From Oscillibacter sp. CAG:241 (GTDB lineage: Bacteria > Bacillota > Clostridia > Oscillospirales > Oscillospiraceae), in the NCBI GenBank assembly GCA_000435975.1, contig FR884114.1, positions 12,224 through 76,223 on the forward strand: DNA of 64,000 bases, given 5' to 3'. A program made the position numbers and the translations under genes. The notes under the pieces were generated by a model that saw only the letters and a list, made by a program, of their open reading frames with translations, did no database searches and was not told where the DNA came from. Positions 4,451 through 31,107 of the stretch are shown here, piece after piece. The stretch's first letter is position 1. Each line of letters starts with the position of its first letter.

Positions 4451-5136
4451 GTCTCGGCAAATTGACCGATGAAGGCGAAGTTCACAGCGCCATCGGGCAC
4501 GACCTTCGGACGGTCAGACTCCTTACGAGGCTGGAAGAAGGAATTGATATACGGCATAAAGCAGGTGGTGGTGTTGCAGGCATCGTGTGCCAGCGCATCG
4601 ATCTTTTCGGTCGGCATGCCGATGTGGTACAGCCACTCACGGCAGACCTCCTCGCCAGTGCAGTCCCGCATGGCCTTCTTTACATAGTTGCCTTCCTTAT
4701 TGGTGTTCAGAGAATACAACCACACAAGCACCATGTTCTTATCTTGGGACTTGAACTGCGGCTGGCGGTTAATGGTCCAGGAGAGATACCAGTTGTCGGT
4801 GCTGTCCTTGACGGTGACAATGCCGCCGGTGGTTACCTTGCCGGAGCGCGGGTCACGCTTGCAAACATTCATAATGTGCTGAATGATCTCTTCATTGGAA
4901 GTGGCGACGGTAGCGCTCATCCAGTTGGTGGCATCCACATCGGAGCAGAATTTGTCCGGGTTGCCGTACTCGCCGTGCTCGGCCTGAGCAGCGATAGCTT
5001 TCCACATATCCCAGGAATCGCCCTTGCCGTTTTCAATGCCGGACAGATCGGGTGCATGAGTCTGGTCGCCATAGCAGGAGGTATCGGTGCAGCAGCCGTT
5101 GGTGATGAACACCAGATCGTCCTCGATGAGGTCGAT
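4451..5136. repeat. 686-bp direct repeat, copy B (5' part of hydratase ORF)
   Basis: Partner of copy A at 3071-3756. Confidence 0.8.
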
Positions 5137-5187
5137 AGAGATTTTTCCCTTTCCGTGTTTCATAGTACCATTATCGTATATTCAAAT

Positions 5188-5240
5188 TCTAAACTGAAAC
5201 GAAACTTTTGAAAATCCGGGCAGTTTCGTTTCAGTTTAGA
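5188..5240. promoter_or_regulatory. 18-bp perfect inverted repeat TCTAAACTGAAACGAAAC ... GTTTCGTTTCAGTTTAGA (17-nt spacer) in a divergent promoter region
   Basis: Lies between the hydratase start (5163, minus) and the flavodoxin-like start (5302, plus). The right arm recurs verbatim at 13939 and 23879. Confidence 0.6.
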
Positions 5241-5301
5241 ATTGCTTGCTACACTCTCCGCAGAAAATGTCGAAATAACGGTTTTTAAGGGAGTGACAGA
5301 C

Positions 5302-5814
5302 TTGAACTATGAAATAGCCTATTACAGTTTATCAGGCAATACAGAAAAGCTGGCATACGGCATTGCAAAGCGTCTTCCGGAAAATCAAGCTTTTTTGACG
5401 AACCTGCAAGAGGAAGAAGTTACCCTTGCGGCCGATGTGTATTTAGTAGGATTCGGCATAAACAACGGTACAGTCCCGCTAAAAGTCATGGACGCATTGG
5501 ACCGGCTGGCCGGAAAGAAGATATTCCTGTTTGTGACCTGCGGCATAGAGCCAAGTGAGGAATACAAGCGGCTTATCGAGCGCAAGATCGAACCTTTTCT
5601 GCCGGACGAATGCGACTATTGCGGCATTTTGCTGTGTCGAGGTCAGATAGCGGAGGAGGTGCTGAGCAAAATCCAAAGACAGTTCGCACAGCAACCGGAC
5701 GATCCTGCCATCAAAAAAATGATCTCCGAGGCAAAATTGTCCGAGGGGCATCCCGATGAAACGGATGCGGAAAACGCAGTGAGGTTTATCCGGGAAAAGC
5801 TTGATTCTTTCTAA
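5302..5814 (+). CDS. flavodoxin-like protein
   Basis: AYYSLSGNTEKLAYGIAKRL flavodoxin signature. TTG start 8 nt after AGGGAG; the in-frame ATG at 5309 is an alternative start. Confidence 0.65.
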   Translation: MNYEIAYYSLSGNTEKLAYGIAKRLPENQAFLTNLQEEEVTLAADVYLVGFGINNGTVPLKVMDALDRLAGKKIFLFVTCGIEPSEEYKRLIERKIEPFLPDECDYCGILLCRGQIAEEVLSKIQRQFAQQPDDPAIKKMISEAKLSEGHPDETDAENAVRFIREKLDSF

Positions 5815-5863
5815 CCGGCAAGCAGCATTTCAAAGATTCATTACATAAAAAGGAGTTTTTACC

Positions 5864-6118
5864 ATGAGAAAAGTTAAGATCATCACCGATTCCTGCGCAG
5901 ACCTGAGCGCAGAGCAACTCGAAAAATACGACATCGACTACGCCAGAATGTCCACGATCGAGGATGGCAAAGAGTCTCCGGCGCTTCTCACATGGACACC
6001 CGCAGAAGCACACAGACTTTACGAGACGATCCGTGGCGGAAAGCGTATCACGACAGCGCAGGTTTCCGTTGAAGAATTCAAAAGCTGTTTGAAAAATATC
6101 TGGGGCTTTATCAGTTAG
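5864..6118 (+). pseudogene. DegV/FakB-family fatty-acid-binding protein, N-terminal 84-aa fragment
   Basis: The KIITDSCADL DegV N-terminus ends at TAG 6116-6118 after about 80 residues, whereas full-length DegV is about 280 aa. Confidence 0.6.
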
Positions 6119-6474
6119 GGGCTGTCTATACAGGCCTTTTTGCTGTTCTTGGACATGCCTATCCGATCTGGTACGGCTTCAAAGGCGGCAAAGGATTTCT
6201 CGTCAGTCTTTCAACGATTTGGGTAACAGACTGGCGGGTCGGTCTGATCGTGACCGGAATGATGGTTGTACTGCTGCTTACCACAAAATATATGTCGCTT
6301 GCTACTGTTGCTGCGACGCTCTGCAGCCCATTGCTTCTGCTGCTGTTCAAAGCACCTGTATCCGTAATTTTGATAGACGCTGCAATCGTTATTTTTGTGG
6401 CGCTGCGGCATAAGGAAAACTTCAGGCGCTTGAAAGCCGGAACAGAATCAAAGTTTACATTAAGCACGCACTGA
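6073..6474 (+). pseudogene. PlsY (acyl-phosphate:glycerol-3-phosphate acyltransferase) C-terminal fragment without start codon
   Basis: Frame-1 translation AVYTGLFAVLGHAYPIWYGFKGGKGF...RHKENFRRLKAGTESK matches PlsY from about residue 85 to the end. It abuts the degV fragment in a different frame. Confidence 0.6.
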
Positions 6475-6519
6475 TAAATTTACAGAACAGGGACGATGCT
6501 TCGAGGAGGTAATGAACTT

Positions 6520-7437
6520 ATGTCTGAAAAATATATTCTTTATAATCCCTGTGCAGGCGGTCCGGAGACCGAGAAAGCCGTAAAAGCCTTGCAGGATGCC
6601 AATGAAGGGGCTGTGGCGATCAATATTTGCCGCATCATCAGTTATAAGACTTTTTTTAACGGATTAGACCCGAATGACACTGTGATCTTATGCGGCGGAG
6701 ACGGCACCCTGAATCGTTTTGTCAACGATGTTAACGGAATGAACATTCCCAATAAGCTCTACTACTACCCCACGGGAACCGGCAACGATTTTGCGAGGGA
6801 TGTCGGGCAAAAACCGTTTTCGGATCCAACGGTTTGCCTCAACCCATATTTTGAACGGCTACCTCGTGTAAGCGTTAAAGGAAAGTCTGAATTGTTCCTG
6901 AACAATGTCGGTTTCGGCATTGACGGTTATTGCTGTGAGGTTGGAGAAAAGCTCCGAGAGGAAAACAAGAAGAGGAAAAAGCCCAAGCCGGTAAATTATA
7001 CGAAGATCGCCATCACCGGGTTGCTGTTTCACTATAAGCCCAAGAATGTGACCGTCGTTGTTGACGGCAAACGCTATCAATATAAAAAAGTGTGGCTTGC
7101 CTCTGTCATGAACGGCAGGTTCTATGGCGGGGGTATGATGCCGACGCCGGAGCAGTACAGATTACGTGAAGACGGAAAGGTATCCATTCTGATATTCCAC
7201 GATGTCGGCAAACTGCGTGGACTAATGATCTTTCCGTCGATTTTCAGCGGCAAGCATCTGAAGTATACGAATCAGATGACGATTCTGGAAGGAAAGACCA
7301 TTCAAGTGAAATATAATGAGCCGGCACCGCTTCAGATCGACGGCGAAGTTGTACCGGAAGTCATGGAATATACGGTTCGGTCATGCGTTTCACCGGCAGA
7401 GAAAGCAAAACAGGACAGTGAAATGGCAGCTGTATAA
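6520..7437 (+). CDS. lipid kinase, diacylglycerol-kinase catalytic-domain family (YegS/BmrU-like)
   Basis: GGDGT motif and DAGK_cat architecture. GGAGG RBS 9 nt upstream. Confidence 0.8.
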   Translation: MSEKYILYNPCAGGPETEKAVKALQDANEGAVAINICRIISYKTFFNGLDPNDTVILCGGDGTLNRFVNDVNGMNIPNKLYYYPTGTGNDFARDVGQKPFSDPTVCLNPYFERLPRVSVKGKSELFLNNVGFGIDGYCCEVGEKLREENKKRKKPKPVNYTKIAITGLLFHYKPKNVTVVVDGKRYQYKKVWLASVMNGRFYGGGMMPTPEQYRLREDGKVSILIFHDVGKLRGLMIFPSIFSGKHLKYTNQMTILEGKTIQVKYNEPAPLQIDGEVVPEVMEYTVRSCVSPAEKAKQDSEMAAV

Positions 7438-7490
7438 ATGCGAAGATAAACGATATTATAATGGCGACAGGCCGATGGGAGATATTACAT

Positions 7491-8045
7491 ATGCATAGGA
7501 TATTCAGAAAAGATCAGGTATTGACGATACCGAATTTATTAAGTGTGATACGCTTGGCGCTGATTCCGCTGATCGTGTGGCTATATATAGGAAAGCAGGA
7601 ATATTCTGCTGCAGTGGCTGTGATTTTAATCTCCGGTGCAACGGATATTATTGACGGATTCATCGCCCGCAAATTCAATATGGTGTCAGACCTCGGAAAG
7701 ATTTTGGATCCCGTGGCAGACAAGCTGACGCAGGCTACGGTGATCCTCTGCTTGACGGTGAAATATCGCTGGATGCGCGGATTGATTGTTCTCTTTGTGG
7801 TCAAGGAGATCATTATGGCCGTGCTCGGGTATATGGCAATTCAAAAGAAAGATGTTGTTAACAGCGCAAAATGGTATGGCAAGCTCAACACCGTGGTTCT
7901 GTATCTGGTTATGACGTGCCTTATCTTGTTCCCGAGTATATCGGAAACGGTGGCAAATGTTCTGATCGGAATTTGCATTTGCGTTATGCTTATGTCCCTT
8001 ACGCTGTACATACGGTTTTACCTGAATCTGTTCCGCACGAACTGA
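7491..8045 (+). CDS. pgsA: CDP-alcohol phosphatidyltransferase (phosphatidylglycerophosphate synthase-like)
   Basis: DGFIAR-x8-G-x3-D-x3-D motif. Multi-TM protein with GGGAG RBS. Confidence 0.8.
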   Translation: MHRIFRKDQVLTIPNLLSVIRLALIPLIVWLYIGKQEYSAAVAVILISGATDIIDGFIARKFNMVSDLGKILDPVADKLTQATVILCLTVKYRWMRGLIVLFVVKEIIMAVLGYMAIQKKDVVNSAKWYGKLNTVVLYLVMTCLILFPSISETVANVLIGICICVMLMSLTLYIRFYLNLFRTN

Positions 8046-8077
8046 ATCAGCAAACCACAGATCCAAGGAGGGATAAA

Positions 8078-8799
8078 ATGGTTGTTGTTTACATACTGCT
8101 TGGCATTCTCGCCGTCCTGCTGCTCTATATTTGCTTCCTTGCAATTTGCAGCCTATGCGTCGATCCGAAAAAAGAATATGAGAAAAACAGCCGTTTTTAC
8201 CGCACACTGCTTACAGCGCTTCTGCCGCTGCTTTGAAGGTGCTGCGAATCAGAGTATATACAAGCGGACTGGAGAAGATACCTAAGAATCAAAAGCTGAT
8301 GTTTGTCGGAAACCATCGCTCCAATTTTGACCCGATCATTGAGTGGCTTGTGCTGAAACCGTGGGATATTGCGTTTATCTCAAAAGGCGAGAATTTTAAG
8401 ATTCCGTTTTTCGGACGAATTATTCGGAAATGCTGCTTTATGCCGATCGACCGGGAGAACCCGCGAAAGGCATTGAGGACGATCAATAAAGCTTCTGATC
8501 TGCTTCAGAGCGGCGAGGTCTCTATCGGTGTATATCCGGAGGGCACCCGAAGCAAAACCGGAGAATTGCTCCCGTTTCACGACGGTGTTTTCCACATTGC
8601 CAAAAAGGCCGGCACACCGATTGTCGTTATGTCCATCAGGGGAACGGAACAGATCCATAAGAATGTCCTACGCCGGCATTCCGATGTATATTTGGACATC
8701 GTGCAGGTGATTCCTGCAAGCGATGTGGAAAACGGAACCACACATACGATCGGCGCAGAAATACGGAATATGTTGCTCGATAGTATAAAAGATAAATAA
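8078..8799 (+). CDS. plsC: 1-acyl-sn-glycerol-3-phosphate acyltransferase (PlsC family); reading frame broken near 8200-8236
   Basis: AAGGAGGG RBS + ATG 8078 gives a TM N-terminus that stops at TGA 8234-8236. The catalytic domain (NHRSNFD, PEGTRS) continues in another frame from 8233 with no ATG/GTG and no RBS of its own. Confidence 0.7.
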
Positions 8800-8830
8800 T
8801 ACAGTAGTTTTATTACGAGGGGTCACAACC

Positions 8831-9643
8831 ATACTCAAGCGAACGATAACCGGTGCGTTTATAACAGCCGCCGTTTACTTAATCCTATTCTATTCTTACA
8901 TACCGGCGGTCATTTTGGTGGCTACCGCCATCCTTTGCGCCTTTTCGGTGTATGAAATATACCGCGCAACCGGCACAATCGAAAATGAAGTGATGTTTAC
9001 TGTTTCTATGCTCATTGCCGTTTTGGCTGCTTTCGTACACATTCCCCGTTCCGAGATCGTACTGACGGTGGCATTTATTTTTGCAACTGTAGCATCCATT
9101 TGGCTGATGATACGGCAAAAACATTGCAGCTTGGACTCTCCCGTCAAGGCATTTTTCATTGTGCTCCTGATCATTGTGCTCTTTAAAGCCATTCCGGAGC
9201 TGAGAAGCCTGAATAGCGGACTGTATTATCTGATTTTTGCTGTCACATTGTGCTTTGTCACGGATGTCGCCGCCTATCTGATCGGGCGAGGTTTGGGACG
9301 GCATAAGCTAATGCCGAAGGTAAGCCCAAATAAGACCATAGAAGGCTCCCTTGGCGGCCTATTGTTCGGGGTGCTATTGGCACTGCTTGGCGGGATCGTT
9401 GTTGAGAAATTTGTAAAGATTGAAGTAAATTACGGAACGCTGGCACTTTGGGCGCTTATGACCTCCGTTGTCGGCCAGTTCGGTGATCTGTCTATGTCAG
9501 TGATCAAACGTATTTGCGGCATCAAAGACTATGGCAATCTGCTGCCGGGACACGGCGGTATACTGGACAGGTTTGACAGTCATTTATTTGCCGTTCCGTT
9601 TACTTATCTTTTCTGCACATACGCAGGCGGCTTCTTTTTATAA
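8831..9643 (+). CDS. cdsA: phosphatidate cytidylyltransferase
   Basis: CdsA signature KTIEGSLGG. The first canonical start is GTG 8915, but the in-frame upstream sequence encodes a CdsA-like TM1 back to about 8822 after a GAGGGG RBS, so the start is uncertain. Confidence 0.75.
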   Translation: MLKRTITGAFITAAVYLILFYSYIPAVILVATAILCAFSVYEIYRATGTIENEVMFTVSMLIAVLAAFVHIPRSEIVLTVAFIFATVASIWLMIRQKHCSLDSPVKAFFIVLLIIVLFKAIPELRSLNSGLYYLIFAVTLCFVTDVAAYLIGRGLGRHKLMPKVSPNKTIEGSLGGLLFGVLLALLGGIVVEKFVKIEVNYGTLALWALMTSVVGQFGDLSMSVIKRICGIKDYGNLLPGHGGILDRFDSHLFAVPFTYLFCTYAGGFFL

Positions 9644-9661
9644 GCGCAGGAGGAATCATCT

Positions 9662-12600
9662 ATGAAAAAATACCGTGCCGGGATCGACATCGGCTCCACG
9701 ACCGTAAAGCTTGTGGTACTTGATGACGCCGATGAGATCCTTTACGGAGAATACAGACGGCATCAGGCCCACACGCAGGAAACCCTATCCACTTTGTTGG
9801 AAGAAGCCAAGAAATCTGTTGGGGAATGTGAACTGCAGGTTTGCATTACCGGCTCCGGTGCGATCAATCTGGGGAAAGCGTTGGATATTTCCTTTGTCCA
9901 GGAGGTCGTTGCCGTCGCTACAGCCCTGAAAAAATGTGCGCCGCAGACGGATGTGGCGATTGAACTTGGCGGCGAGGATGCTAAGATCATATACTTTACC
10001 GGCGGATTAGAGGAGCGAATGAACGGTGTCTGCGCCGGCGGAACCGGCTCTTTCATCGATCAAATGGCATCGCTGCTGCAAACGGATGCCGCCGGACTGA
10101 ATAGAGAGGCTGAGCAGTACAAGCAGATCTACCCGATCGCAGCACGCTGCGGCGTATTTGCGAAAACAGATATTCAGCCCTTGATCAATGAAGGGGCAAC
10201 CAAAGCGGACCTTGCAGCATCTATTTTTCAGGCAGTCGTGAACCAGACGATCTCCGGTCTTGCCTGCGGAAAGCCGATCCGGGGATGCGTGGCATTTCTC
10301 GGAGGTCCGCTGCATTTTCTGCCGGAACTGAAAAAGGCATTTGTACGGACTCTTGGTTTGACAGCGGAAACGACTGTTGATCCGGATCACTCCCATCTGT
10401 TTGCCGCCATGGGCGCTGCAATGGAAAGCACGGAAAAAGACACTGTCCCAATCGACACCCTGATCGAGCGTCTGAAAAACGGCGTCTCGATCTCTTTTGA
10501 AATGCCCCGGCTTCCGGCTCTATTTGAAAGTCACGCAGAATATGAGCAGTTCTGCTGCAGACACGCTCGGGCTTCCGTTGCCCGTGGTGAGCTTTCCGCC
10601 TATCGAGGGAACTGCTATCTGGGAATCGACGCTGGTTCTACGACAACCAAGATGGCGCTGATCGGGGAAAACGGTGAACTGCTGTATTCTTACTACACGA
10701 ACAACAACGGCAACCCAATCGAGGCGGCAAAAAAGGGTATCCACGAACTGCAAACGCTAATGCCGGGGAATGCAAAAATCGTCCGGGCGTGCTCTACCGG
10801 CTACGGAGAGGCACTGCTGCAGGCTGCCTTTTCTCTGGATGACGGAGAAGTGGAAACGATTGCTCACTGTACGGCCGCTTCTTTCTTCGATCCAAAAGTG
10901 GACTGTGTGCTGGACATTGGCGGTCAGGATATGAAATGTATCCGTCTGAAAAACGGTGCTGTGGACAGTATCATGCTTAACGAAGCCTGCTCCTCTGGCT
11001 GCGGTTCCTTTATTGAAAACTTTGCAAACTCTTTAGGATATACTGCAGAAGAGTTCGCACAAACCGCACTATTTGCCGAACACCCGGTTGACCTCGGTAC
11101 CCGGTGCACGGTTTTCATGAATTCCAATGTCAAGCAGGCACAAAAAGAAGGTGCCTCGGTTTCGGATATTTCCGCCGGCCTTGCCTATTCCGTGATCAAA
11201 AACGCTTTGTATAAGGTCATCAAGCTGTCCTCGGCGGAGGAGCTTGGCAGCCATATCGTCGTGCAGGGCGGTACTTTTCATAACAAGGCTGTCTTGCGGG
11301 CGTTTGAAGAAATTGCCGGTGCAGAAGTGATTTGCCCGGATATTTCCGGCGTGATGGGTGCTTTCGGTGCCGCATTGATCGCCAGACGCAATTACACCGG
11401 AGCACCGACACCGACTAAGATGCTTTCACTGGAGCAGATCGAGGCGCTGACCTATTCCTCTTTCACAAGACGCTGCGGCGGCTGTGCCAACCATTGTATG
11501 CTGACGGTAAATGTTTTTGACGGAGAGCGCCGCCACATCACAGGAAATCGCTGTGAAAAGATGGTCGGCAATGCCGAGCGGAAAAAAGCTGCACCCAATA
11601 TGGTTGAATTCAAGCGCCGATGCATATTTGGCTATGAGCCGCTTGCAGAGTCAGCTGCCGCACGGGGGACGATCGGTATTCCCCGGGTGCTGAACCTATA
11701 TGAAAACTACCCGTTTTGGGCAACCTTTTTCAAACAGCTGCATTTCCGGGTCATCTTATCCCCCTTTTCAAGCCGAAAGATCTACGAGCTTGGGATGGAG
11801 TCAATCCCATCCGAATCGGAATGTTACCCCGCAAAGCTGGCGCACGGCCATGTACAGTGGCTCATCAACCAAGGCATCAAAACGATCTTTCACCCCTGCG
11901 TATTCTACGAACACCAGGAAACGCTGGGAGCACAGAACCATTTTAATTGCCCCATTGTTGTTTCATATCCTGAAAACATCAAAAACAATGTGGAAGCCGT
12001 TACCAATGGAGCCGTGCGCTACATACGCCCATTTATGGCGTTTACCGATGAAAAGACGGTTGCTGACCGCATGGTAAAGCTCTGCCGTGAGGAATGGAAT
12101 ATTCCCGCACCGGAGGTGCATGCGGCAGTAAAAGCGGCATGGGCAGAACAGCAGCGGGTCAAGGCAGATATTCGTACGGAAGGCAAGCGCCTGCTCAATC
12201 AGATGAAGCATAACGGCGAGTGCGGAATCGTGCTGGCGGGGCGGCCGTATCATATCGACCCCGAAATCAACCACGGGATCCCGGAACTGATTGCCTCCTA
12301 CGGTCTGACGGTTTTTACTGAGGATAGTCTTCCCATCGATTTTGAGCCGTCCCGGCCCTTGCGTGTTGTGGATCAGTGGGTATATCATTCCCGGCTGTAC
12401 AATGCAGCGGAATTTGTCTGCCAACATGATAAATTGGAGATGATTCAGCTCAATTCTTTCGGATGCGGACTTGATGCCGTAACGACAGATCAGGTAAGCG
12501 AGATTCTGGAGGCTTCCGGCAAGCTGTATACGCTTTTGAAGATCGACGAGGTCGCCAATCTCGGCGCTGTCCGTATCCGAATCCGCAGCTTGCTCTCTGC

Positions 12601-13903: not shown

Positions 13904-13938
13904 CGAAATGAAGCAAAACGGAGTTTTTTCTCCGGTTT

Positions 13939-13956
13939 GTTTCGTTTCAGTTTAGA
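13939..13956 (+). promoter_or_regulatory. GTTTCGTTTCAGTTTAGA motif copy upstream of ftsH
   Basis: Exact 18-mer, 48 nt before the ftsH ATG. Preceded by an imperfect hairpin+T6 at 13916-13938 that ends the upstream gene. Confidence 0.5.
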
Positions 13957-14003
13957 AATGGACAGTATACTCACCACAATGAACGAAAAGGAGTCGGGTA
14001 AGT

Positions 14004-15833: not shown

Positions 15834-16381
15834 AAAGAAAAAACGGCTTTGGATGGAGCGAATTGATCGTCGGCGTGCTCCTGATCCTGCTTGGCATCTT
15901 TGCCTTTATCCGCCCGGAAAGCATGCTGACGGGAGCGGTCGTTATTTACGGCGTGATCGCCATTGTGATGGGCATTGAAGATCTCGTGGTATATGCCCGG
16001 CTTTCCCGCTTTATCGGCTTCGGTCCGATGCTGTCGTTGATCTCTGGGATTTTAAGCGTTATGTGCGGCGTGATGCTGATCGCCAATCCCAATGTCGGGA
16101 AATGGGCACTGACGATTCTTCTCCCGATTTGGTTTATCGCCCACTGCATATCCGAGCTGACAAGGACAAACCTGATTCGTTTGATTGGAAATCCGTTTTA
16201 TTACTATTTCTCACTGATTCTGAACATTCTCGGGCTTGTGCTCGGATTTGTGATGATCTTTAGTCCGGCGCTTTCCTTTGTAACGCTCAGAGCGATCTGC
16301 TATATGGTGGCAATCTATCTGATCCTGTTCGGCATCGAAAGCATTATTGCGGCTTTTGCCCGCAGAAACTCCGACTGGTAA
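15830..16381 (+). CDS. HdeD/DUF308-family small membrane protein
   Basis: Repeated GxxxIxxGI hydrophobic repeats. Start overlaps the ftsH stop (ATGA). Confidence 0.55.
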   Translation: MKRKNGFGWSELIVGVLLILLGIFAFIRPESMLTGAVVIYGVIAIVMGIEDLVVYARLSRFIGFGPMLSLISGILSVMCGVMLIANPNVGKWALTILLPIWFIAHCISELTRTNLIRLIGNPFYYYFSLILNILGLVLGFVMIFSPALSFVTLRAICYMVAIYLILFGIESIIAAFARRNSDW

Positions 16382-16396
16382 TACAGGAGATGCAGT

Positions 16397-17068
16397 ATGG
16401 AAGAAATGAAAAAGGAGCAGATCCCTCAGATCGGCAGCCGTTTGCGGCAGCATATTCTGAAGATCCCGGAGGCGGTTTTCCAAGCCAGCGGAATTATCAT
16501 CAACGGACGCAGGATCAAAAGCTTTGTCTTTACCACCGATCTTGCAATTATTCGGAATTGTGACGCCGATGCCGTGTTTGCGGTCTATCCCTTTACTCCG
16601 CAGCAAGCGATCAGCGATGCAATCATTCGCTCCTCTTATATCCCGGTGTTCTGCGGCGTTGGTGGCGGGACGACCAAGGGAATAAGGACGGTATCCTTGG
16701 CGAAGGACGTGGAGTCGCAAGGTGCTATGGGAGTTGTGCTGAATGCACCGATTTCCGATCTGAATCTTCTGGCTGTAAGCAACGCCGTAGATATTCCGGT
16801 GATTATCACGGTGACGCATGAGGGCACGGACATTGCCAGCCGTTTGCAGCATGGCGCTGCGATCTTAAATATCGCCTGCGGAAAAGAGACTCCGAATGTT
16901 GTACGAAAAATCCGCTCGGAGTTTCCGAATGTTCCGCTGGTTGCATCCGGTGGGAAAACCAACGAAAGCATCTATGAGACAATCGTGGCCGGGGCCAACG
17001 CTATTACCTATACGCCGCCCTCGACGCAGGAATTGTTTAAGGAACTGATGGCAAAGTATCGAACTTAA
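16397..17068 (+). CDS. phosphate-binding (beta/alpha)8-barrel-like protein of unknown function (PcrB/ThiE/NanE-like pattern)
   Basis: 223 aa. CGVGGG and C-terminal ASGG...AGANAI glycine motifs typical of phosphate-binding TIM barrels. Family not resolvable by eye. Confidence 0.35.
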   Translation: MEEMKKEQIPQIGSRLRQHILKIPEAVFQASGIIINGRRIKSFVFTTDLAIIRNCDADAVFAVYPFTPQQAISDAIIRSSYIPVFCGVGGGTTKGIRTVSLAKDVESQGAMGVVLNAPISDLNLLAVSNAVDIPVIITVTHEGTDIASRLQHGAAILNIACGKETPNVVRKIRSEFPNVPLVASGGKTNESIYETIVAGANAITYTPPSTQELFKELMAKYRT

Positions 17069-17107
17069 CGGTATTATAAACAACAAAGATTATGGGAGCA
17101 AACCAAT

Positions 17108-18868
17108 ATGTTTGAGCTATTAAAGAAAATGAAACGCAAGGAGTGGCTGACTGCCGGGCTTTGCGCCATTCTGGTATTGGGTCAGATCTATTTTGATCTG
17201 CGCCTGCCGGACTATATGAGCGACCTGACAGTACTTATCAAGACCCCTGGCAGCGCAATGAGTGACATCTGGCAAACAGGGCTTGAAATGCTCGGCTGCA
17301 CGCTCGCAAGCGCTCTGCTTGCGGTAATTTGCGGATACTTGGCAGCGCAGACTGCCGCAGGCTTCAGCTATACAATCCGTGAAAAGGTGTTTAATCAGGT
17401 GGCGGATTTCGGTCAGTATGAAATGCAGCAGTTTTCTGTTCCGAGCCTGATCAACCGCACGACGAATGACATCACGCAGATCCAGATGCTTGTGGCAATG
17501 GGCCTGCAAATTATGATCAAATCTCCGATCATGGCGATTTGGGCGGTCATAAAGATCATCAACAAAAGCTGGACGCTGTCTGTTATCACCGCCGGCTTTG
17601 TCGTGGCGCTGCTTGCCATGATGGCAATCGTCATTGCGGTGATCGTGCCGCGTGTCCGCCGTGTGCAGAAATTGACGGATAACATCAACCGTGTATCCCG
17701 TGAAAATCTGACGGGCATCAATGTGGTGCACGCTTATAATGCCGAGAAATATCAAGCGGAAAAATTTGAGCAGGCCAACGACGAACTGATGAGAACGCAG
17801 CTGTTCAATCAGCACGGATTTGCGATGCTTATGCCGGCTGTCTCGTTCGCTATGAATACTTTGGCATTGACCGTCTATTGGGTAGGCGCATCTATCGTGG
17901 AAAAGGTCGCACTTACAGATGTCGCAGCGAGGATCGCAACATTCGGTGACATTATGGTATTCGGCACCTATGCAACCTATGTCATCATGTCCATTATGAT
18001 GATGGTCATGATTGTAATGTTCTTCCCTTCGGCCCAGGTTTCTGCCGGGCGTATCAATGAGGTGCTGAATGCAAAAATCATCTTACGGGAAGGAAAATCG
18101 GACAACGCTCCCGAAGTGGGCACAGTCGAGTTCAAGGATGTTTCCTTCCACTATCCCACCTCGGATAAGGATGTATTGGAAAACATCAGCTTTAAGGTGA
18201 ATAAAGGTGAAACCATTGCATTTATCGGTGCGACCGGCAGCGGTAAAACAACGCTCATCAGCCTGGCAGCTCGCTTTTACGACACGACCTCCGGCACGGT
18301 CCTGATCGACGGAAAGGATATAAAAGAATACACCTTCGACGCCCTTTACGACCGTATCGGATATGTAACGCAGAAAGCGGTTCTGTTTGCCGGTGACATC
18401 CGGGATAATGTGCTGTTCGGTGAAAGCGCCGCAGTTCCTACCGACGAAAACGCACAGAAAGCCTTGGAACTTGCCCAGGCAAGTGAATTTGTCGAAAAAC
18501 TGCCCGGCAAATTAGATGCACCGATTTCACAGGGCGGATCCAATGTTTCCGGCGGACAGAAGCAGCGTTTGGCAATCGCCCGTGCGTTGGCGAGAAATCC
18601 CGAGATTTTGATTTTCGATGACTCCTTCTCCGCATTGGACTACAAAACCGATGCAGCGCTGCGAAAAGGTCTTGCCGAAAAGCTCGGCGGCGTTACCTGC
18701 ATGATCGTTGCCCAGAGAATCGGTACGATCCGCAACGCCGATAAGATCGTCGTTCTGGATGAAGGCAAGGCCGTTGGGATCGGTACGCATGAGGAACTGA
18801 TAAAGAATTGTGCTGTCTATCGAGAAATTGCCATGTCGCAGTTGTCCGCCGAAGAACTGGGCGCATAA
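17108..18868 (+). CDS. ABC exporter half-transporter (permease + ATPase)
   Basis: Six-TM N-terminus, Walker A GATGSGKTT and canonical VSGGQKQRLAIARAL signature. Confidence 0.9.
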   Translation: MFELLKKMKRKEWLTAGLCAILVLGQIYFDLRLPDYMSDLTVLIKTPGSAMSDIWQTGLEMLGCTLASALLAVICGYLAAQTAAGFSYTIREKVFNQVADFGQYEMQQFSVPSLINRTTNDITQIQMLVAMGLQIMIKSPIMAIWAVIKIINKSWTLSVITAGFVVALLAMMAIVIAVIVPRVRRVQKLTDNINRVSRENLTGINVVHAYNAEKYQAEKFEQANDELMRTQLFNQHGFAMLMPAVSFAMNTLALTVYWVGASIVEKVALTDVAARIATFGDIMVFGTYATYVIMSIMMMVMIVMFFPSAQVSAGRINEVLNAKIILREGKSDNAPEVGTVEFKDVSFHYPTSDKDVLENISFKVNKGETIAFIGATGSGKTTLISLAARFYDTTSGTVLIDGKDIKEYTFDALYDRIGYVTQKAVLFAGDIRDNVLFGESAAVPTDENAQKALELAQASEFVEKLPGKLDAPISQGGSNVSGGQKQRLAIARALARNPEILIFDDSFSALDYKTDAALRKGLAEKLGGVTCMIVAQRIGTIRNADKIVVLDEGKAVGIGTHEELIKNCAVYREIAMSQLSAEELGA

Positions 18869-18883
18869 GGAGGTGCTCTGTAA

Positions 18884-20689
18884 ATGAACGGAAATCAAAT
18901 GATGGGGCGCCGAACAGGCGTGCCCGAAAAAAGTAAACGAGGAATAAAGGGCGTTCTGAAAGAACTGTTTACCTATTCTTCAAAATTGCGGCTGCCAATG
19001 ATCATTGCGTTTGTGTTTTCCATGATCGGCGCTGTCTTGACGATCATCGGGCCAAACCAGCTTAGTCGTATCACGGATCTGATCTCAGACGGACTGATGA
19101 CCGGCATTGACCTTTCTGCCGTTGCAAAGGTGGGAGGCGTCCTGCTGGCGATCTATCTGATCGGTGAAGTGTGCGGATATATTGAGCAATATATCATGGC
19201 TACCGTTACGCTGGATCTGTCCAAGAAAATGCGGCGGGATCTTTCCGATAAAATCAATAAGGTCCCTATGAAGTGCTTTGGGAAAATCTCGCACGGCGAT
19301 ATTCTGAGCCGTGTGACAAATGATGTCAGCACGCTTCAGCAGGCACTTTCCAACAGCCTTCCGTCGATGATCAGTGCAGTTGCCCAATTCGTAGGCTGCC
19401 TGATTATGATGCTTGTGACGGAGTGGCGAATGGCGCTTGCAGCGATCGCCATTACGCTGATTGGATTCGTTGTAATGGCGGTAATCATGTCCCGTTCTCA
19501 AAAATACTTCGTCGCCCGTCAGCAGAGTCTCGGTAAGCTCAACGGCTATGTGGAGGAAATGTACTCCGGCCATGATGTTGTACGCATTTCCCGTGCCAAC
19601 AACGAGATCAAAAAGAACTTTGCCGGGATGAACCGTGCGGTTTACGATGCAAACCGGAAAAGTCAGTTTCTATCCGGCGTTATGCAGCCGCTGATGAATG
19701 TGATCGGCAATCTCGGTTATGTAGCGGTCTGTGTGATCGGTGCGGCTTTGGTTATGGATGGGCAGATCACCTTTGGCGTAATCACGGCATTTATCATGTT
19801 TGTCCGCTTGTTTACCTCCCCGCTCAGCACACTGGCACAGGGTATGACGCAGATGCAGACGGCAGCTGCCGCCGGAGATCGGATATTCGACTTCCTGCAG
19901 GAGGAAGAACTTTCGGATGAAAGCTATAAGACCGAGAAATTGACCGAGGTGCATGGCGAGGTCGAATTCGACCATGTTCGCTTCAGCTATCCGGATAATC
20001 CGGACAAAATCATTATCAAAGATTTTTCTGCTCACATCAAGCCGGGGCAGAAAGTCGCTATCGTCGGTCCTACAGGTGCCGGTAAGACAACAATGGTCAA
20101 CCTTTTGATGCGGTTCTTTGATCTGGTCGGCGGCGATATCCGCATTGACGGTATTTCTACCTCCGATTTGACACGAGAAAACATCCACGAGCTGTTTGGC
20201 ATGGTGCTGCAGGACACCTGGCTGTTTGACGGAACCGTGCGTGAAAATCTCGTTTACAACAAAACAGGGGTTACGGACGAAGAACTTGAAAAGGCCTGCC
20301 GTGCGTGTGGGATCTATCACTTTATCGAGACGCTTCCGAATGGCTTTGATACCGTGCTTGGAGAAAATGTGGTCATTTCCGCAGGGCAAAAGCAGCTCTT
20401 TACCATTGCTCGTGCCATGATCAAAAACAGCCCAATGATGATCCTGGACGAAGCGACCAGCTCGGTCGATACACGGACGGAGCTGATGACGCAGAAGGCT
20501 ATGGATACGCTGACAGAGCACAGAACCAGCTTCGTGATCGCTCATCGGCTTTCTACCATTAAAAACGCTGACCTGATCCTTGTGATGAAGGAAGGCGACA
20601 TCATCGAACAGGGCACGCATGAGGAACTGCTGGCACAGGGCGGTTTCTATGCTGACCTATACAACAGCCAGTTTGACAAAGCATCTTAA
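18884..20689 (+). CDS. ABC exporter half-transporter, partner subunit with degenerate signature (heterodimer)
   Basis: Walker A GPTGAGKTT and signature ISAGQKQLFTIARAM. Immediately follows the first ABC gene. Confidence 0.9.
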   Translation: MNGNQMMGRRTGVPEKSKRGIKGVLKELFTYSSKLRLPMIIAFVFSMIGAVLTIIGPNQLSRITDLISDGLMTGIDLSAVAKVGGVLLAIYLIGEVCGYIEQYIMATVTLDLSKKMRRDLSDKINKVPMKCFGKISHGDILSRVTNDVSTLQQALSNSLPSMISAVAQFVGCLIMMLVTEWRMALAAIAITLIGFVVMAVIMSRSQKYFVARQQSLGKLNGYVEEMYSGHDVVRISRANNEIKKNFAGMNRAVYDANRKSQFLSGVMQPLMNVIGNLGYVAVCVIGAALVMDGQITFGVITAFIMFVRLFTSPLSTLAQGMTQMQTAAAAGDRIFDFLQEEELSDESYKTEKLTEVHGEVEFDHVRFSYPDNPDKIIIKDFSAHIKPGQKVAIVGPTGAGKTTMVNLLMRFFDLVGGDIRIDGISTSDLTRENIHELFGMVLQDTWLFDGTVRENLVYNKTGVTDEELEKACRACGIYHFIETLPNGFDTVLGENVVISAGQKQLFTIARAMIKNSPMMILDEATSSVDTRTELMTQKAMDTLTEHRTSFVIAHRLSTIKNADLILVMKEGDIIEQGTHEELLAQGGFYADLYNSQFDKAS

Positions 20690-20708
20690 TCAGAAGGGAG
20701 AGACAACC

Positions 20709-21311
20709 ATGAAATCCTTGGCAATCGAAAGAGAATTCGGAAGCGGCGGCCGTGAGATCGGTATGCGTGTTGCCGAATTGGCAGGAATACCTTACTATGA
20801 CGGTGAGTTGCTGATCAAAGCCGCTGAAGCCCAGGGTGTATCTATCGAACTGCTGAAAACCTACGACGAGCAGCGTACAGGTAGCTTTCTGTATGACATT
20901 GCTGCTTTTTCGGACTACGCACGTAACCGGAAGAACACAGTCTATGAGCTGTTCGAGGGAATTCGTCGGACAATGGTAAACATCGAGCTGAAAGGCCCTG
21001 CTGTTTTTATTGGCAGATGCTCCACGGTGATCCTCGGGGAAAGCCCTCGTGTTCTGAAATCATTTATTTATTCATCCGATACCGAGAAAAGGGTGGAACG
21101 CATTATCCGAACGGAAAATGTTTCGGAGACTGACGCAAAATATCTGATGCAGAAAAAGGATAGGGATCGGAAAAACTATTTCCGCTTCTGGACACAGAAG
21201 GAGTGGGCAGATAAGAGCAATTACGATATTCTGCTGAATACATCCGGCGTGTCCACGGAGGCATGTGCCCAAATGCTTCTTGCTGCGATAAGCGGCCAGC
21301 CACAGAAGTAA
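20709..21311 (+). CDS. cytidylate kinase-like family protein
   Basis: AIEREFGSGGREIG N-terminal P-loop-like motif of the Cytidylate_kin2 family. GGGAGAG RBS; the ORF-track start further upstream is inside the ABC gene. Confidence 0.65.
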   Translation: MKSLAIEREFGSGGREIGMRVAELAGIPYYDGELLIKAAEAQGVSIELLKTYDEQRTGSFLYDIAAFSDYARNRKNTVYELFEGIRRTMVNIELKGPAVFIGRCSTVILGESPRVLKSFIYSSDTEKRVERIIRTENVSETDAKYLMQKKDRDRKNYFRFWTQKEWADKSNYDILLNTSGVSTEACAQMLLAAISGQPQK

Positions 21312-21359
21312 TTCAGCATTTCCAACGGCCGCTATGCAAATCAAAGAGGTATCAAACTT

Positions 21360-21875
21360 ATGAAACATTTTTTGCGTTGCTTGCTTTACATAGCGGCCTT
21401 GGGTGTTGTGTTTTTTGTAGTCGGACGGTTAGTACCAAAGTCTTGGTTCAAAGCGGATCATTTCCCGTGGCGGTGCTATTCATATGAACAAGCAATATGG
21501 AAAGCGCTGCGTGTGAAGCAGTGGCAGGCAAAGGTGCCGGATATGAGCCGTATTTTTACAAATATCATGCCGGCAAAAAAGCTAAAGCGACAAACGCTTT
21601 CCGATTTGCCCAGAATGATCCAAGAAACCTGTGTTGCAGAGTGGACACACGGTATCTTATCGATTGCAGGGCTTGCAATGCTATGGTTCTGGCCTGGTAT
21701 AGGAGGTATTTGCATGACGGCCGTTTACATTTTGCTCGGCAATTTGCCATTTATTGTGGTACAGCGTTTCAACCGGCCTCGCTTACAAAAATTACTCTTA
21801 AAGCAACAGCGCAATATGCAAATTCGGAACTTACCACGATATGAGGAGCAGCTACTAACGACGATAGCACCGTAA
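21360..21875 (+). CDS. CrtO-like membrane acyltransferase (glycosyl-4,4'-diaponeurosporenoate acyltransferase family)
   Basis: C-terminal FIVVQRFNRPRLQKLL matches the IIVQRYNRPRL core of staphylococcal CrtO. Two TM segments. Confidence 0.6.
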   Translation: MKHFLRCLLYIAALGVVFFVVGRLVPKSWFKADHFPWRCYSYEQAIWKALRVKQWQAKVPDMSRIFTNIMPAKKLKRQTLSDLPRMIQETCVAEWTHGILSIAGLAMLWFWPGIGGICMTAVYILLGNLPFIVVQRFNRPRLQKLLLKQQRNMQIRNLPRYEEQLLTTIAP

Positions 21876-21920
21876 ACCCTTATCTCGCTTTTGCCGCACG
21901 TTACGAATGGATGGAATGTT

Positions 21921-22625
21921 ATGCAAAGAAGCACGAAAAAAATCAAACCGGAGGTGGACTACCGCCAGTTTCGTTTCAAAAAAATGAATACGCCGGAGTT
22001 TTCACATGTTAAGTTGCTGCTGTTTTGGCCGTTTTTCGGATTGATGTTTATGTTTCTTGAACGGTTTCAGCCGGAAAGACATTATTACGTTGTACACTGT
22101 GCGCTGGACGACTTGATCCCATTCTGGGAATGGGCGCTGATCCCGTATCTTCTGTGGTTTGTTTTTCTCATCGGAGCACTTATCTATACCTTTTTCTTTG
22201 ACACAAGAGCCTTCCGAAGAATGATGCACTTTGTTATCGTTACATACGGCATCACATTGCTTATTTACATCGTATTTCCGACCTGCCAGGAATTACGACC
22301 GGAGCATTTCGATGAACCCAATATACTTACTGATTTTATAACGGGGTTTTATTCATTTGACACCAACACGAATGTCTGTCCTTCTCTCCATGTTATCGGC
22401 TCGTTTGCCGCTATGTTTGCTCTGTGGGATTGCAAACGCTTTCAAAATGTTGCATGGAAGATCGTGTTCGGCATCATCGCAGTATGCATCAGCCTTTCGA
22501 CTGTTTTTATGAAACAACATTCTGCTGTGGATGTCATAGCTGCATTGCCTGTGTGCGCTTTGGGCTGGTGGCTGGGTTACGGAAAGAAAGAAGCATCAGC
22601 TCAGACCTCTGCAGTGGAGAAATAG
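21921..22625 (+). CDS. PAP2-superfamily lipid phosphatase/phosphotransferase
   Basis: PSLH and SAVDV motifs in a 6-TM protein. Alternative TTG start at 21891. Confidence 0.7.
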   Translation: MQRSTKKIKPEVDYRQFRFKKMNTPEFSHVKLLLFWPFFGLMFMFLERFQPERHYYVVHCALDDLIPFWEWALIPYLLWFVFLIGALIYTFFFDTRAFRRMMHFVIVTYGITLLIYIVFPTCQELRPEHFDEPNILTDFITGFYSFDTNTNVCPSLHVIGSFAAMFALWDCKRFQNVAWKIVFGIIAVCISLSTVFMKQHSAVDVIAALPVCALGWWLGYGKKEASAQTSAVEK

Positions 22626-22626
22626 A

Positions 22627-23776
22627 TATGGATAAAAAATTTAAGCAACAGCTTGGCTTGATTGCTTTCGGCGTTGCTCTATTCACAGCATTAAACAACT
22701 TGAACTATATTTCGGACTTTTTACATGTGTGTGCGGAATTGCTCACCCCTGTATTTGCAGGGTTGCTCATGGCGTTTATCCTGAGCGTTCCGATGCGCGG
22801 GATCGGCAAGCGTCTTTCTCGCCTTATGCCCAAAGCAAGCGAGCGCACAATCAATGTTTTAAGTTTGATTATTACATTGTTGCTTTTAGTCGCTATTATC
22901 GTGCTACTATGTGTCATTGCGATTCCTCAGCTCATAGCCTCCGTAAAAAGTATCATTTCTCTTATTAAAGAAAAGTGGCCCGACTGGGCAGCGGTGCTGC
23001 GCAATTATGGCTTTGATACCGCTGAGATCAGCGCATATCTCAACAAGTTGGATTGGAAAACCATTGCCGAGAAGGCAATGAACGGAGCAGGCGTAGTAAT
23101 AGGCTCCGTTGTCAGTGTTGCCGGCTCTACAATATCTACTGTTGTCAACGCAGCCGTTTCGCTCGTGATCATGTTTTATGTTCTGGTTGGAAAGCAGGAA
23201 CTTGGCAAACAAACAAGACGGGCGCTGTACGCTTATTGCAAAGAATCTGTCGCAGATAAGGTCTGCCATATCGCAAAGCTGTCTCACGATACCTATGCCA
23301 AATTTCTTTCAGGTCAATGTGTAGAGGTGCTGATACTTGGTACGCTGATTTTCCTTTCGTTTTCTATATTCCGGATCCCTTATGCCGGGCTGACGGCGGT
23401 TTTGACCGCAGCTTTTGCCTTTGTACCATACATTGGAGCGTTCTTGTCCTGTGCAATCGGTATGTTGCTGACTTTGCTGGCTGAGCCAAACAAGGTGATC
23501 CTATGCCTGATCGTCTATCAGGCGGCACAGTTCGTTGAAAACCAATTTATTTACCCTCATGTTGTGGGAAGCAGTGTCGGGCTATCTCCGTTTTGGACCT
23601 TGCTCGCCGTCCTTTTGGGCGGGAAGATGTTTGGCGTTTTAGGTATCATCTTCTTTATCCCGTTGATGGCGGTGATCTCACAATTACTGCATGAGAATAT
23701 TGAACACCGTTTGGCTGTGCGGAAGCTAAAGAAAAACGACCTCATCAAAAATCTGACTGAGCACTTCAACAAATGA
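22627..23776 (+). CDS. AI-2E family transporter (UPF0118 permease)
   Basis: YPHVVGSSVGLSPFWTLLAVLLGGKMFGVLGIIFFIPLMAV C-terminal signature. ATG overlaps the previous stop. Confidence 0.8.
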
Positions 23777-23878
23777 TATGGTTACGGCGCAGCCGAAAAA
23801 AGGCTGCGCCGTTCTTTTATTATGCTCGTTCTCTCAGATCCAAACGGGAATACTATGATCCTGAGCAAATTCCCTTTT

Positions 23879-23896
23879 GTTTCGTTTCAGTTTAGA
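23879..23896 (+). promoter_or_regulatory. GTTTCGTTTCAGTTTAGA motif copy upstream of PLD-family gene
   Basis: Exact 18-mer, 48 nt before ATG 23944. Confidence 0.5.
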
Positions 23897-23943
23897 AAAG
23901 GACATTATAATTTCTGCAAATCTGGATAAAAGGAAAGGTGCTG

Positions 23944-25326: not shown

Positions 25327-25401
25327 ATGATCCGAATCCGGAGGTGCGTCTGTCTTAATCGGCGCACTAAAGATATCCCTTAGCAGAAAGGAAGTTGTAG
25401 T

Positions 25402-26861: not shown

Positions 26862-26887
26862 CTCTCTGTTAAAAGGAGAGCACAAAA

Positions 26888-28411: not shown

Positions 28412-28413
28412 AA

Positions 28414-29102: not shown

Positions 29103-29124
29103 GTACGCAGATCGGAGAAATGCT

Positions 29125-29862: not shown

Positions 29863-29888
29863 CCGGCGGAGGAAAGCGTGATTATAGA

Positions 29889-30682: not shown

Positions 30683-30749
30683 GTGGCAGGTCAAAAGACA
30701 AACAATATATCGAAAAAAGAAGCAACCGCTTATCTTTGTAAACGGCTGC

Positions 30750-31079: not shown

Positions 31080-31107
31080 TGTAGTTCACCTCATATATAT
31101 TTTAGTG

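Follow-up and report, generated by a model that had tools for sequence, protein, structure and literature searches.

Box promoters in the Oscillibacter window

The window analysed here, a stretch of 64,000 nucleotides from Oscillibacter sp. CAG:241 (contig FR884114.1, positions 12,224 to 76,223 of the forward strand), contains four exact copies of an 18-bp motif, GTTTCGTTTCAGTTTAGA, hereafter termed the box. The copies had been pointed out in an earlier reading made without database searches (hereafter the sequence-only reading), and were recovered at the same positions and on the same strands, namely 5188-5205 on the reverse strand and 5223-5240, 13939-13956 and 23879-23896 on the forward strand. 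By chance, 0.06 copies would be expected in the window, and at most one occurred in 100 dinucleotide shuffles. Each copy forms part of a predicted promoter, and on the basis of Pfam the genes behind them code for members of the MCRA/oleate hydratase, Flavodoxin_3, FtsH (Peptidase_M41 and AAA) and PLDc_2 families, in agreement with the hydratase, flavodoxin-like, FtsH and phospholipase D assignments made previously, with the exception that the hydratase open reading frame (ORF) is a chimera, as described below. The promoters are as follows:

5173-5205, reverse strand: promoter P4, with the box at 5188-5205 and the -10 hexamer TACGAT at 5173-5178; divergent from P1
5223-5255, forward strand: promoter P1, with the box at 5223-5240 and the -10 hexamer TACACT, preceded by TG, at 5250-5255; heads the flavodoxin operon
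13939-13971, forward strand: promoter P2, with the box at 13939-13956 and the -10 hexamer TATACT at 13966-13971; heads the ftsH operon
23879-23911, forward strand: promoter P3, with the box at 23879-23896 and the -10 hexamer TATAAT at 23906-23911; heads the cls operon

Alignment of the four copies revealed an invariant 19-mer, comprising the 18-mer and an additional A, followed by eight variable nucleotides and a TAnnnT hexamer in all four cases, with no conservation in the remaining flanks. The layout can be written as W-GTTTCGTTTCAGTTTAGA-WW, seven nucleotides and the TAnnnT -10 hexamer, and the relaxed pattern GTT-N8-GTT-N13-TAnnnT retrieves the same four sites only in the 64 kb, where 0.15 would be expected. 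The box occupies approximately positions -40 to -22, where the -35 hexamer would be, and ends 9 bp before a sigma-A-type -10 hexamer. Its best match to TTGACA at any allowed spacing, as read from the sequence, is three of six positions, and a TG-extended -10 is missing in three of the four promoters. The bases after the boxes (AAT, AAT, AAA and AAA) are those given in the sequence-only reading, and its estimate that start codons follow at about 25-60 nucleotides (nt) in the same orientation is essentially right. The distances from the end of the box are 24 nt to the ATG at 5163 (reverse strand), 61 nt to the TTG at 5302 of the flavodoxin gene, which is also the start called on the identical contig L199, 47 nt to the ATG at 14004 of ftsH, and 47 nt to the ATG at 23944 of cls, or 41 nt if the GTG at 23938 is used. 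Transcription is predicted to start about 7 nt past the TAnnnT hexamers, at approximately 5262 from P1, 13978 from P2, 23918 from P3 and 5166 from P4, the last about 3 nt ahead of the ATG at 5163, so that the P4 transcript would be nearly leaderless. A terminator-like hairpin (13919-13934) lies directly upstream of the ftsH box and a strong terminator (23784-23812) directly upstream of the cls box, and each of these two boxes thus opens a new transcription unit.

No box beyond these four emerged in the window when up to three mismatches were allowed or the hexamer pattern was relaxed. The three-mismatch matches at 17125, 26896, 30362 and 39515 overlap long ORFs, have no -10 hexamer and occur near the chance count, and were therefore rejected. 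A half-box, GTTTCGTTTCA, at 21967-21977 on the forward strand was likewise rejected as a site, as it falls inside the PAP2 ORF and has neither a second hexamer nor a -10. It is followed by AAAAAAT and preceded by a short hairpin, and is probably a chance occurrence or a decayed site. The partial copy reported previously at 36223-36233 (TTCGTTTCAGT) does exist, but lies in an ORF-dense region with no second GTTT hexamer and no -10 at the right distance. By arithmetic, 64 kb should contain some 0.2 matches of an 11-mer to part of the 18-mer, and this copy is therefore treated as chance. A function of the box as an RNA element was also rejected, as an Rfam scan returned no RNA element at the boxes and the box, being located ahead of the -10, is not transcribed from these promoters.

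Distribution of the box and its regulon

In a collection comprising one genome per species, a scan for the exact 18-mer identified at least 118 genome stretches. Almost all of these belong to Clostridia of the gut and rumen, among them Lachnospiraceae, Oscillospiraceae, Ruminococcaceae and Christensenellales. Chance expectation, by arithmetic and assuming uniform composition, is approximately 17 matches in the 596 Gb scanned. Only two matches to the box were found in 2.9 million viral contigs. The counts that follow are those among the matches listed. The TAnnnT hexamer begins exactly 9 nt past the box in 109 of 121 unique instances, and across these instances W occupies position -1 as well as +19 and +20, while TG stands ahead of the -10 in about half. 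The other flanking positions carry no more than 0.43 bits, compared with 1.5-2 bits for positions within the box and the -10. In 113 of 129 instances, the four in the window included, an ORF of 100 or more amino acids (aa) follows in the same orientation, with its start at a median distance of 51 nt. Divergent pairs of boxes, such as that formed by P1 and P4, also occur in L006/L034, L090 and L104.

Clustering of the downstream proteins, with subsequent Pfam analysis of representatives, showed that the most frequent family behind the box is DegV/FakB (23 instances), followed by ABC transporters, including 1000-aa ABC-FtsX fusions (13 instances), FtsH (8; seven in other loci and one in the window), FakA (8), OmpR-type response regulators (7), 2-oxoacid-dehydrogenase-like acyltransferases (6), Zn-ribbon membrane proteins (5), PlsC-like proteins (5), radical SAM/SPASM proteins (4), DAG kinases (4), 1400-aa CoA-activase/DUF2229 proteins (3) and CmpB (3). 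Flavodoxin, PlsX, PlsY and RelQ-like proteins follow with two instances each, and the remaining families are singletons, for example a patatin and a cytidylate-kinase-like protein. This set is coherent and covers the activation of exogenous fatty acids together with the assembly, remodelling and quality control of the membrane. Each of the seven other ftsH loci belongs to the genome of a different species in the collection scanned, and the motif is thus present at orthologous ftsH promoters, a comparison which the sequence-only reading had proposed. Its suggestion of a shared, orientation-specific promoter element of a membrane or fatty-acid regulon is upheld. The regulon is, however, neither small, as had been supposed, nor local, given the number of stretches carrying the box. 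Its core consists of fakA, fakB/degV, plsX/Y/C and dagK, which were not visible to the sequence-only reading.

The consensus of the operator was derived from 61 boxes which had not been chosen by the exact 18-mer, and in which only GTTT at positions 1-4 and 12-15 was set by the search pattern. The free positions in these boxes read MKTTTCA (positions 5-11) and AKAWT (positions 16-20). The GTTTMK hexamers begin 11 bp apart, at positions 1 and 12, with W before the first unit and an AT-rich tail after the second, giving an operator consensus of approximately 20 bp, W-GTTTMKTTTCAGTTTAGA-W-T. The box is a direct repeat and is not palindromic, and GTTTMK hexamers spaced in this manner are characteristic of OmpR-family proteins that bind as head-to-tail dimers. 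We regard it as practically certain that the motif is a promoter operator.

A second motif, (T)GTCG(A/T)A(A/T) and typically TGTCGAAAA, was observed 1-16 nt past the -10 in 19 of the 129 box promoters, approximately 13-fold above the background rate. It occurs at 5267-5275 in the window and in the leaders of L004, L038, L039, L044, L057, L073-L075, L080, L085, L104 and L109, mainly ahead of fakA, plsX, degV and flavodoxin genes, and for some copies base pairing with a GACA(T) further downstream is possible. This motif may represent a second operator or a 5'-leader hairpin.

A candidate regulator-kinase pair linked to the box

Seven exact boxes lie directly ahead of a regulator gene, behind which comes the gene of a short kinase. 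The regulator is a 224-aa OmpR-family protein starting with MF(R/Q/H)ILVxDDDKNTR. The seven regulators share 79-84 % identity with the reference from locus L025 and their DNA-binding domain is nearly invariant, which fits the near-invariant box. The kinase (351-401 aa) incorporates two N-terminal hydrophobic helices separated by a loop of approximately 10 residues, with HAMP and kinase domains after them, an architecture predicted to be of the intramembrane-sensing type. Neither the regulator nor the kinase reached any NCBIfam equivalog cut-off, and the Protein Data Bank (PDB) matches of the regulator showed no specific affinity to SaeR, WalR, PhoP or others.

The linkage between the box and the regulator is reciprocal. 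An orthologue of the regulator (66-100 % identity) is encoded in 61 of the 118 listed 8-kb stretches centred on an exact box, while the estimated expectation is approximately 0.3 % if the gene occurs once per genome of about 3 Mb. In the opposite direction, 80 metagenomic loci were fetched by regulator homology alone and searched for GTTT-type boxes. These were found in 12 of the 19 loci where the identity of the regulator is 70 % or higher (14 boxes, with 0.009 expected), in two of 29 loci at 60-70 % identity and in none of 32 loci at 50-60 %. Ahead of the diverged regulators both hexamers are altered together, at the same distance to the -10 of the regulator's own promoter, for example in the pairs GTTGAG/GTTGAG, GTTAAT/GTTAAT, GTTAAC/GTTAAT and GTTTAT/GTTTAT. 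The neighbouring ABC and Zn-ribbon membrane genes, which belong to families of the main regulon, carry the same variant hexamer in L146 and L148, while in L157, L163 and L172 the boxes of these neighbours differ (GTTTAA/GTTTAT or GTTTAT/GTTGAC). The regulator's own promoter often carries a weaker variant of the box, for example with GTTTAG or GTTTAT as the first unit, and targets in the same genome keep the canonical box. From this reciprocal linkage and the parallel change of the hexamers we consider it highly probable that the regulator described here would be the protein that binds the box.

A paralogous group of regulator homologues from the human gut (L173-L192), of approximately 54 % identity, has no GTTT-type box. 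These genes carry a different conserved upstream element, TTTTTTGTGCAGTTTTGC-CGCCGTGCAAAATTTCC, approximately 90-110 nt before the start codon, which suggests that the group represents a sister two-component system acting through a separate operator.

An integrative island carries all four boxes

All four copies in the window are cargo promoters of a mobile island, and not promoters of the host chromosome. Three of them head long co-directional cargo operons and one is a divergent promoter. The components of the island and the ORF at its left junction are as follows:

4449-49700: integrative island of approximately 45 kb, delimited by the guanine-cytosine (GC) profile, Pfam and junction analysis
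4449-30600: island cargo, with all four boxes
30700-49700: island backbone, encoding an XRE regulator, a small sigma-like protein, a ParM-like protein, LigA (NAD-dependent ligase), PcfJ and PcfK, and further YodL, a RecD2-like helicase and YqaJ
31460-31924: small sigma-like protein of 154 aa with sigma-70 region 4
48595-49662: tyrosine integrase, at the end of the low-GC block
2794-5163, reverse strand: chimeric MCRA ORF of 789 aa, recognised from its internal duplication and the junction

The GC content of the island is approximately 0.50, as against 0.62-0.65 in the host sequence at both ends of the window, and the right end of the island, set by the GC step only, is approximate. An exact-protein look-up placed the cargo proteins on seven public contigs, and the one compared, the metagenome contig L199, is 100 % identical to positions 4449-25833 of the window. 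Island-free relatives (L201-L203) share 98-99 % identity with the window, ending at position 4448, which in these contigs falls inside an intact MCRA gene of 597 aa. This synteny break indicates that the island was inserted in the host MCRA gene, 46 codons in. The insertion site adjoins a tRNA-Leu(CAA) gene (2548-2633). No direct repeat of nine or more nt, as would mark attachment (att) sites, joins the left junction at 4449 to the right end. No close relative of the backbone was found among 72,556 plasmids (one 3 % match, from Subdoligranulum) or 50,697 phages.

The divergent box in the window does not serve a hydratase gene proper, as had been assumed in the sequence-only reading, and reads instead into the chimera which arose from this insertion. 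Residues 1-237 of the chimeric ORF (positions 5163-4453) constitute an island-borne MCRA fragment, 90 % identical to the host gene, and the remainder is the host oleate hydratase without its first 46 codons. This is reflected in a 90 % direct repeat (3069-3368 and 4449-4748), with residues 1-237 repeating residues 468-704. No Shine-Dalgarno sequence precedes the ATG of the chimera. Judging from its sequence, the chimeric ORF is probably non-functional as a hydratase. In locus L104, the divergent partner of the flavodoxin-type promoter drives a TetR-regulator-kinase operon, while the corresponding box in the window reads into the MCRA fragment.

Genes of the TetR family recur beside these promoters. 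A TetR_C_8-type gene heads the L104 regulator-kinase operon (5275-7717, reverse strand), divergent from the box promoter, and a TetR gene precedes the host-type native MCRA gene in L200-L203 (approximately 14325-15092). The TetR_C_8-type genes may add another level of control over fatty-acid-related genes.

The cargo consists nearly entirely of membrane and lipid genes, which belong to the same families as the box-linked genes in other genomes. Gene identities were assigned with Pfam and NCBIfam scans and gene calls were those on the identical contig L199. The following units and genes were distinguished:

5302-13903, forward strand: inferred operon 1, its extent taken from co-orientation and terminator positions
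5302-5814, forward strand: Flavodoxin_3 protein, operon 1
5864-6118, forward strand: DegV fragment, operon 1
6520-7437, forward strand: DAG kinase/YegS-like protein, operon 1
7491-8045, forward strand: CDP-alcohol phosphatidyltransferase, operon 1
8233-8799, forward strand: PlsC-type acyltransferase, operon 1
8915-9643, forward strand: CdsA-type protein, operon 1
9662-13903, forward strand: BcrAD_BadFG and DUF2229 protein of 1413 aa, operon 1
14004-23776, forward strand: inferred operon 2, between the terminators at 13919-13934 and 23784-23812, with FtsH, a DUF308 protein and a 223-aa protein as its first genes
17108-20689, forward strand: two ABC exporters, operon 2, followed by a cytidylate-kinase-like protein and a CrtO-like acyltransferase
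21921-22625, forward strand: PAP2 phosphatase, operon 2
22628-23776, forward strand: AI-2E-family transporter, operon 2
23944-30596, forward strand: inferred operon 3, its extent taken from co-orientation only, with a PLD/cardiolipin-synthase-family protein, an alpha/beta hydrolase, a DUF1538 protein, a P-II-like protein and a Zn peptidase
29889-30596, forward strand: atypical OmpR-family regulator, the last gene of operon 3

The 84-aa ORF at 5864-6118 matches only the first 74 of the 280 positions of the DegV model and is, as judged from this match, a truncated fakB-like gene. A 400-nt gap without a called gene (6119-6519) separates it from the DAG kinase gene. The 1413-aa BcrAD_BadFG and DUF2229 protein is presumably a candidate plasmalogen synthase (PlsA).

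In the host flank, two RNA elements unrelated to the box scored over the Rfam gathering score, with 69 bits each, namely a tetrahydrofolate (THF) riboswitch (53074-53172, forward strand) and an ssnA RNA motif (55282-55329, forward strand).

Proposed mechanism and alternative explanations

Taken together, it appears likely that the box would be the operator of a conserved Clostridial regulator of the OmpR/PhoB family, which would activate a membrane-lipid regulon and by which the cargo of the island would be switched in trans. A head-to-tail dimer of the phosphorylated regulator would bind the two repeats and recruit the sigma-A holoenzyme. Class II activation is proposed on account of the PhoB-like geometry, with the box in the position of the -35 and 9 bp from a housekeeping -10, and the poor match to TTGACA fits an activator-dependent promoter. 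Activation is, on balance, favoured over repression, with rather less assurance than the identity of the regulator. The kinase would read a property of the bilayer, such as the load of free fatty acids, lipid packing or perturbation. As the kinase lacks an extramembrane sensor domain and the targets build or repair the membrane, a bilayer signal is the most economical proposal, and we put forward such a bilayer or fatty-acid signal only tentatively. The regulon would comprise the incorporation of exogenous fatty acids (fakA and fakB/degV), the assembly and remodelling of phospholipids (plsX, plsY, plsC-like, dagK and CoA-activase/DUF2229 genes, and in the window cdsA-, pgsA- and cls-type genes), membrane-protein quality control (ftsH), ABC exporters and the two-component system itself. 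As the island does not encode the cognate system, its three operons most likely depend on a system that the host would encode and which would act in trans. Oscillospiraceae loci of GC-rich appearance, such as L036 and L106, carry both the box and the regulator.

Several points weigh against this interpretation. The link between the regulator and the box is entirely comparative, and repression would be just as compatible with a site that overlaps the -35 region. Several close orthologues of the regulator have no box within 250 nt upstream, probably because these genes are located inside an operon. Neither the cognate regulator nor its kinase is encoded in the 64-kb window. The genome stretches were chosen by the exact 18-mer, and the apparent invariance of the box is therefore partly an effect of ascertainment; the exact 18-mer accounts for four of the 18 boxes in the loci fetched by regulator homology. 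Lastly, the internal TTTCA (positions 7-11) is conserved as strongly as the hexamers, and a model of two half-sites leaves it unexplained. Its conservation may reflect contacts of the wing or in the minor groove, or a contact with sigma region 4.

The box could alternatively be the operator of a repressor, whether the same regulator or another protein, which would block RNA polymerase by occupying the -35 region until a signal de-represses the lipid genes. Besides the overlap with the -35 position, the TG-extended -10 in about half of the listed promoters could allow transcription independent of a -35, and RR_1586 of Clostridioides difficile, which also binds 11-bp direct repeats, reduced reporter output in Escherichia coli (PMC6222199). 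The same extension is, however, missing in the other half of the listed instances and in three of the four window promoters, where the match to TTGACA is such that basal activity should be weak. An 18-bp tandem repeat which ends 9-10 bp before the -10 is furthermore the geometry of PhoB-type activation, and repression is considered unlikely. Self-regulation of the island by its own OmpR-family protein (29889-30596) would account for the absence of the canonical regulator, as this protein has an OmpR-type winged-helix domain and is encoded at the end of a box-driven operon. Its receiver is degenerate (D-R-N for D-D-D, and R for the conserved K; 29 bits, under the Pfam cut-off) and no kinase gene is adjacent, and it is likely that such a protein would act independently of phosphorylation. 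It shares, however, only 27 % identity with the box-linked regulators, its recognition helix reads EVVKAHIKSLRQKL as against ETVTVHIGRLRKRF in the latter, and no close homologue is encoded in any other box-bearing locus. It can thus not explain the box elsewhere and would at most add an island-specific layer, so that we consider its role as the regulator that binds the boxes very improbable.

More improbable still is that the box serves as the -35 element of an alternative sigma factor, a possibility raised in the sequence-only reading and for which the 154-aa sigma-70 region 4 protein of the island (31460-31924) would be a candidate. The -35 region is indeed non-canonical and highly conserved. 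The -10 is nevertheless of the housekeeping type (TAnnnT, frequently with TG) and not of the extracytoplasmic function (ECF) type, and the conserved block of 19-20 bp, with its 11-bp phasing, is much longer than the -35 element of a sigma factor. No close homologue of the island sigma (no hit at E <= 1e-10) is found in the other box loci, despite the presence of the box in at least 118 stretches, and it is the response regulator, and no sigma gene, which co-localises with the boxes (61 of 118 among the matches listed). The least credible explanation is that of a dispersed repeat, such as a miniature inverted-repeat transposable element (MITE) or a repetitive extragenic palindrome (REP), or of a recent local duplication without regulatory meaning. 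Four identical 19-mers within 19 kb on a mobile island could be read in this way. The sequences outside the box and the -10 are, however, unrelated, there are no terminal inverted repeats, the downstream functions are coherent, the box is nearly absent from the viral contigs, and its orientation is directed at genes throughout, as the co-oriented ORFs behind 113 of the 129 listed instances show. The dispersed-repeat reading, which had been named as a test of the element, is thus refuted by the unconserved flanks and co-oriented ORFs, and together with the fixed -10 these identify the motif as one half of a promoter.

The control of membrane make-up and of the uptake of host and dietary fatty acids appears to be largely undescribed for the Clostridia that dominate in the gut and rumen (Lachnospiraceae, Oscillospiraceae and their relatives). 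The known lipid regulators of Firmicutes, FapR, FabT and DesKR, come from Bacilli. The present data offer a cis-element, a candidate sensor-regulator pair and a coherent list of targets (fakA, fakB, plsX/Y/C, dagK, CoA-activase/DUF2229, ftsH and exporters), and as the box is rich in information, members of the regulon can be read from any Clostridial genome or metagenome-assembled genome. It is conceivable, though we lean slightly away from so broad a claim, that this represents an undescribed Clostridial master regulon for membrane-lipid homeostasis, in which the intramembrane-sensing system would switch on fatty-acid kinase, acyltransferases, enzymes of head-group and ether-lipid synthesis, FtsH and exporters. 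Mobile islands would exploit this circuit, the present one by plugging in approximately 25 kb of lipid and quality-control genes, in three operons, through consensus-perfect boxes and without a regulator of its own. If so, a membrane-remodelling module would be horizontally transferable and correctly regulated on arrival. The island also exemplifies a mobile element that brings along the putative operator of a host two-component system, and not the system itself, which bears on the question of how horizontally acquired metabolic modules become regulated.

Comparison with known systems

The closest parallel in promoter architecture is the pho box of E. coli, an 18-bp element of 11-bp phased repeats which replaces the -35, ends approximately 10 bp before a sigma-70-type -10 and is bound by a head-to-tail dimer of PhoB, an OmpR-family regulator autoregulated together with its kinase. 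The box described here shares the length of 18 bp and is followed, after 9 bp, by TAnnnT. It differs in sequence (CTGTCATAWAWCTGTCAY in the pho box as against GTTTMKTTTCAGTTTAGA here) and in the regulon, which concerns phosphate in the former and membrane lipids in the latter. The regulator scores 183.9 bits on the PhoB model (cut-off 296.2) and the kinase, which has no PAS or large sensor domain, 149.4 bits on the PhoR model (cut-off 334.2). These scores fall far under the equivalog cut-offs, and the pair is thus not PhoB/PhoR.

The operators of the known lipid regulators differ more fundamentally. FapR, FabT and DesKR control fatty-acid and phospholipid genes such as plsX and fab. FapR (DeoR-like) and FabT (MarR) are repressors acting on palindromes, while DesR is of the NarL type and controls a desaturase, with the membrane-embedded DesK sensing the state of the bilayer. 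None of the three is known to use an 11-bp tandem direct repeat which replaces the -35. The box is, in contrast to the FapR and FabT operators, a non-palindromic direct repeat, and the statement in the sequence-only reading that it does not match FapR or FabT boxes is upheld as far as the sequence goes.

Among intramembrane-sensing systems, SaeS of Staphylococcus aureus has two helices with a 9-aa linker, and its partner SaeR, an OmpR-family regulator, binds the site GTTAA-N6-GTTAA with 11-bp phasing and natural variants including GTTTA (PMC5083920). The activity of SaeRS is tied to fatty acids and FakA (PMC5539427). The pair described here resembles SaeRS in the two-helix, short-loop kinase and in the 11-bp direct repeat, and diverged Clostridial lineages use GTTAAY-N5-GTTAAT. 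It is nevertheless not orthologous, as the SaeR DNA-binding domain ranks approximately 18th among the PDB matches (E approximately 4e-10, as against 1.5e-18 for the best). The Sae regulon, furthermore, comprises virulence factors and is inhibited by fatty acids, whereas the regulon here is the fatty-acid and phospholipid machinery itself.

No paper with the exact 18-mer was found in the literature searched, where the 11-mer core occurred only in primers. Keyword searches on Clostridial two-component systems in connection with fatty-acid kinase, DegV, plasmalogen or intramembrane kinases yielded SaeRS of S. aureus and DraRS/HexRK and RR_1586 of C. difficile only, none of which matches. DraRS was rejected, as DraS has an extracellular sensor domain and is hence not the box-linked kinase. 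The closest published Clostridial analogue in form is the site of the OmpR-family regulator RR_1586 of C. difficile, which consists of DRTTAAGNWWW twice, that is, two 11-bp direct repeats of a hexamer with an AT-rich tail, and which had been delineated with one-hybrid screening, gel shifts and comparative genomics (PMC6222199). It differs in the half-site (TTAAG as against GTTTMK) and in the regulon, which comprises ion, phosphate and ABC transport as well as sporulation-linked genes. The box thus appears to be a tandem-repeat operator of the well-known OmpR-family kind, at the head of a lipid-homeostasis regulon which appears to be widespread in the Clostridia and hitherto undescribed.

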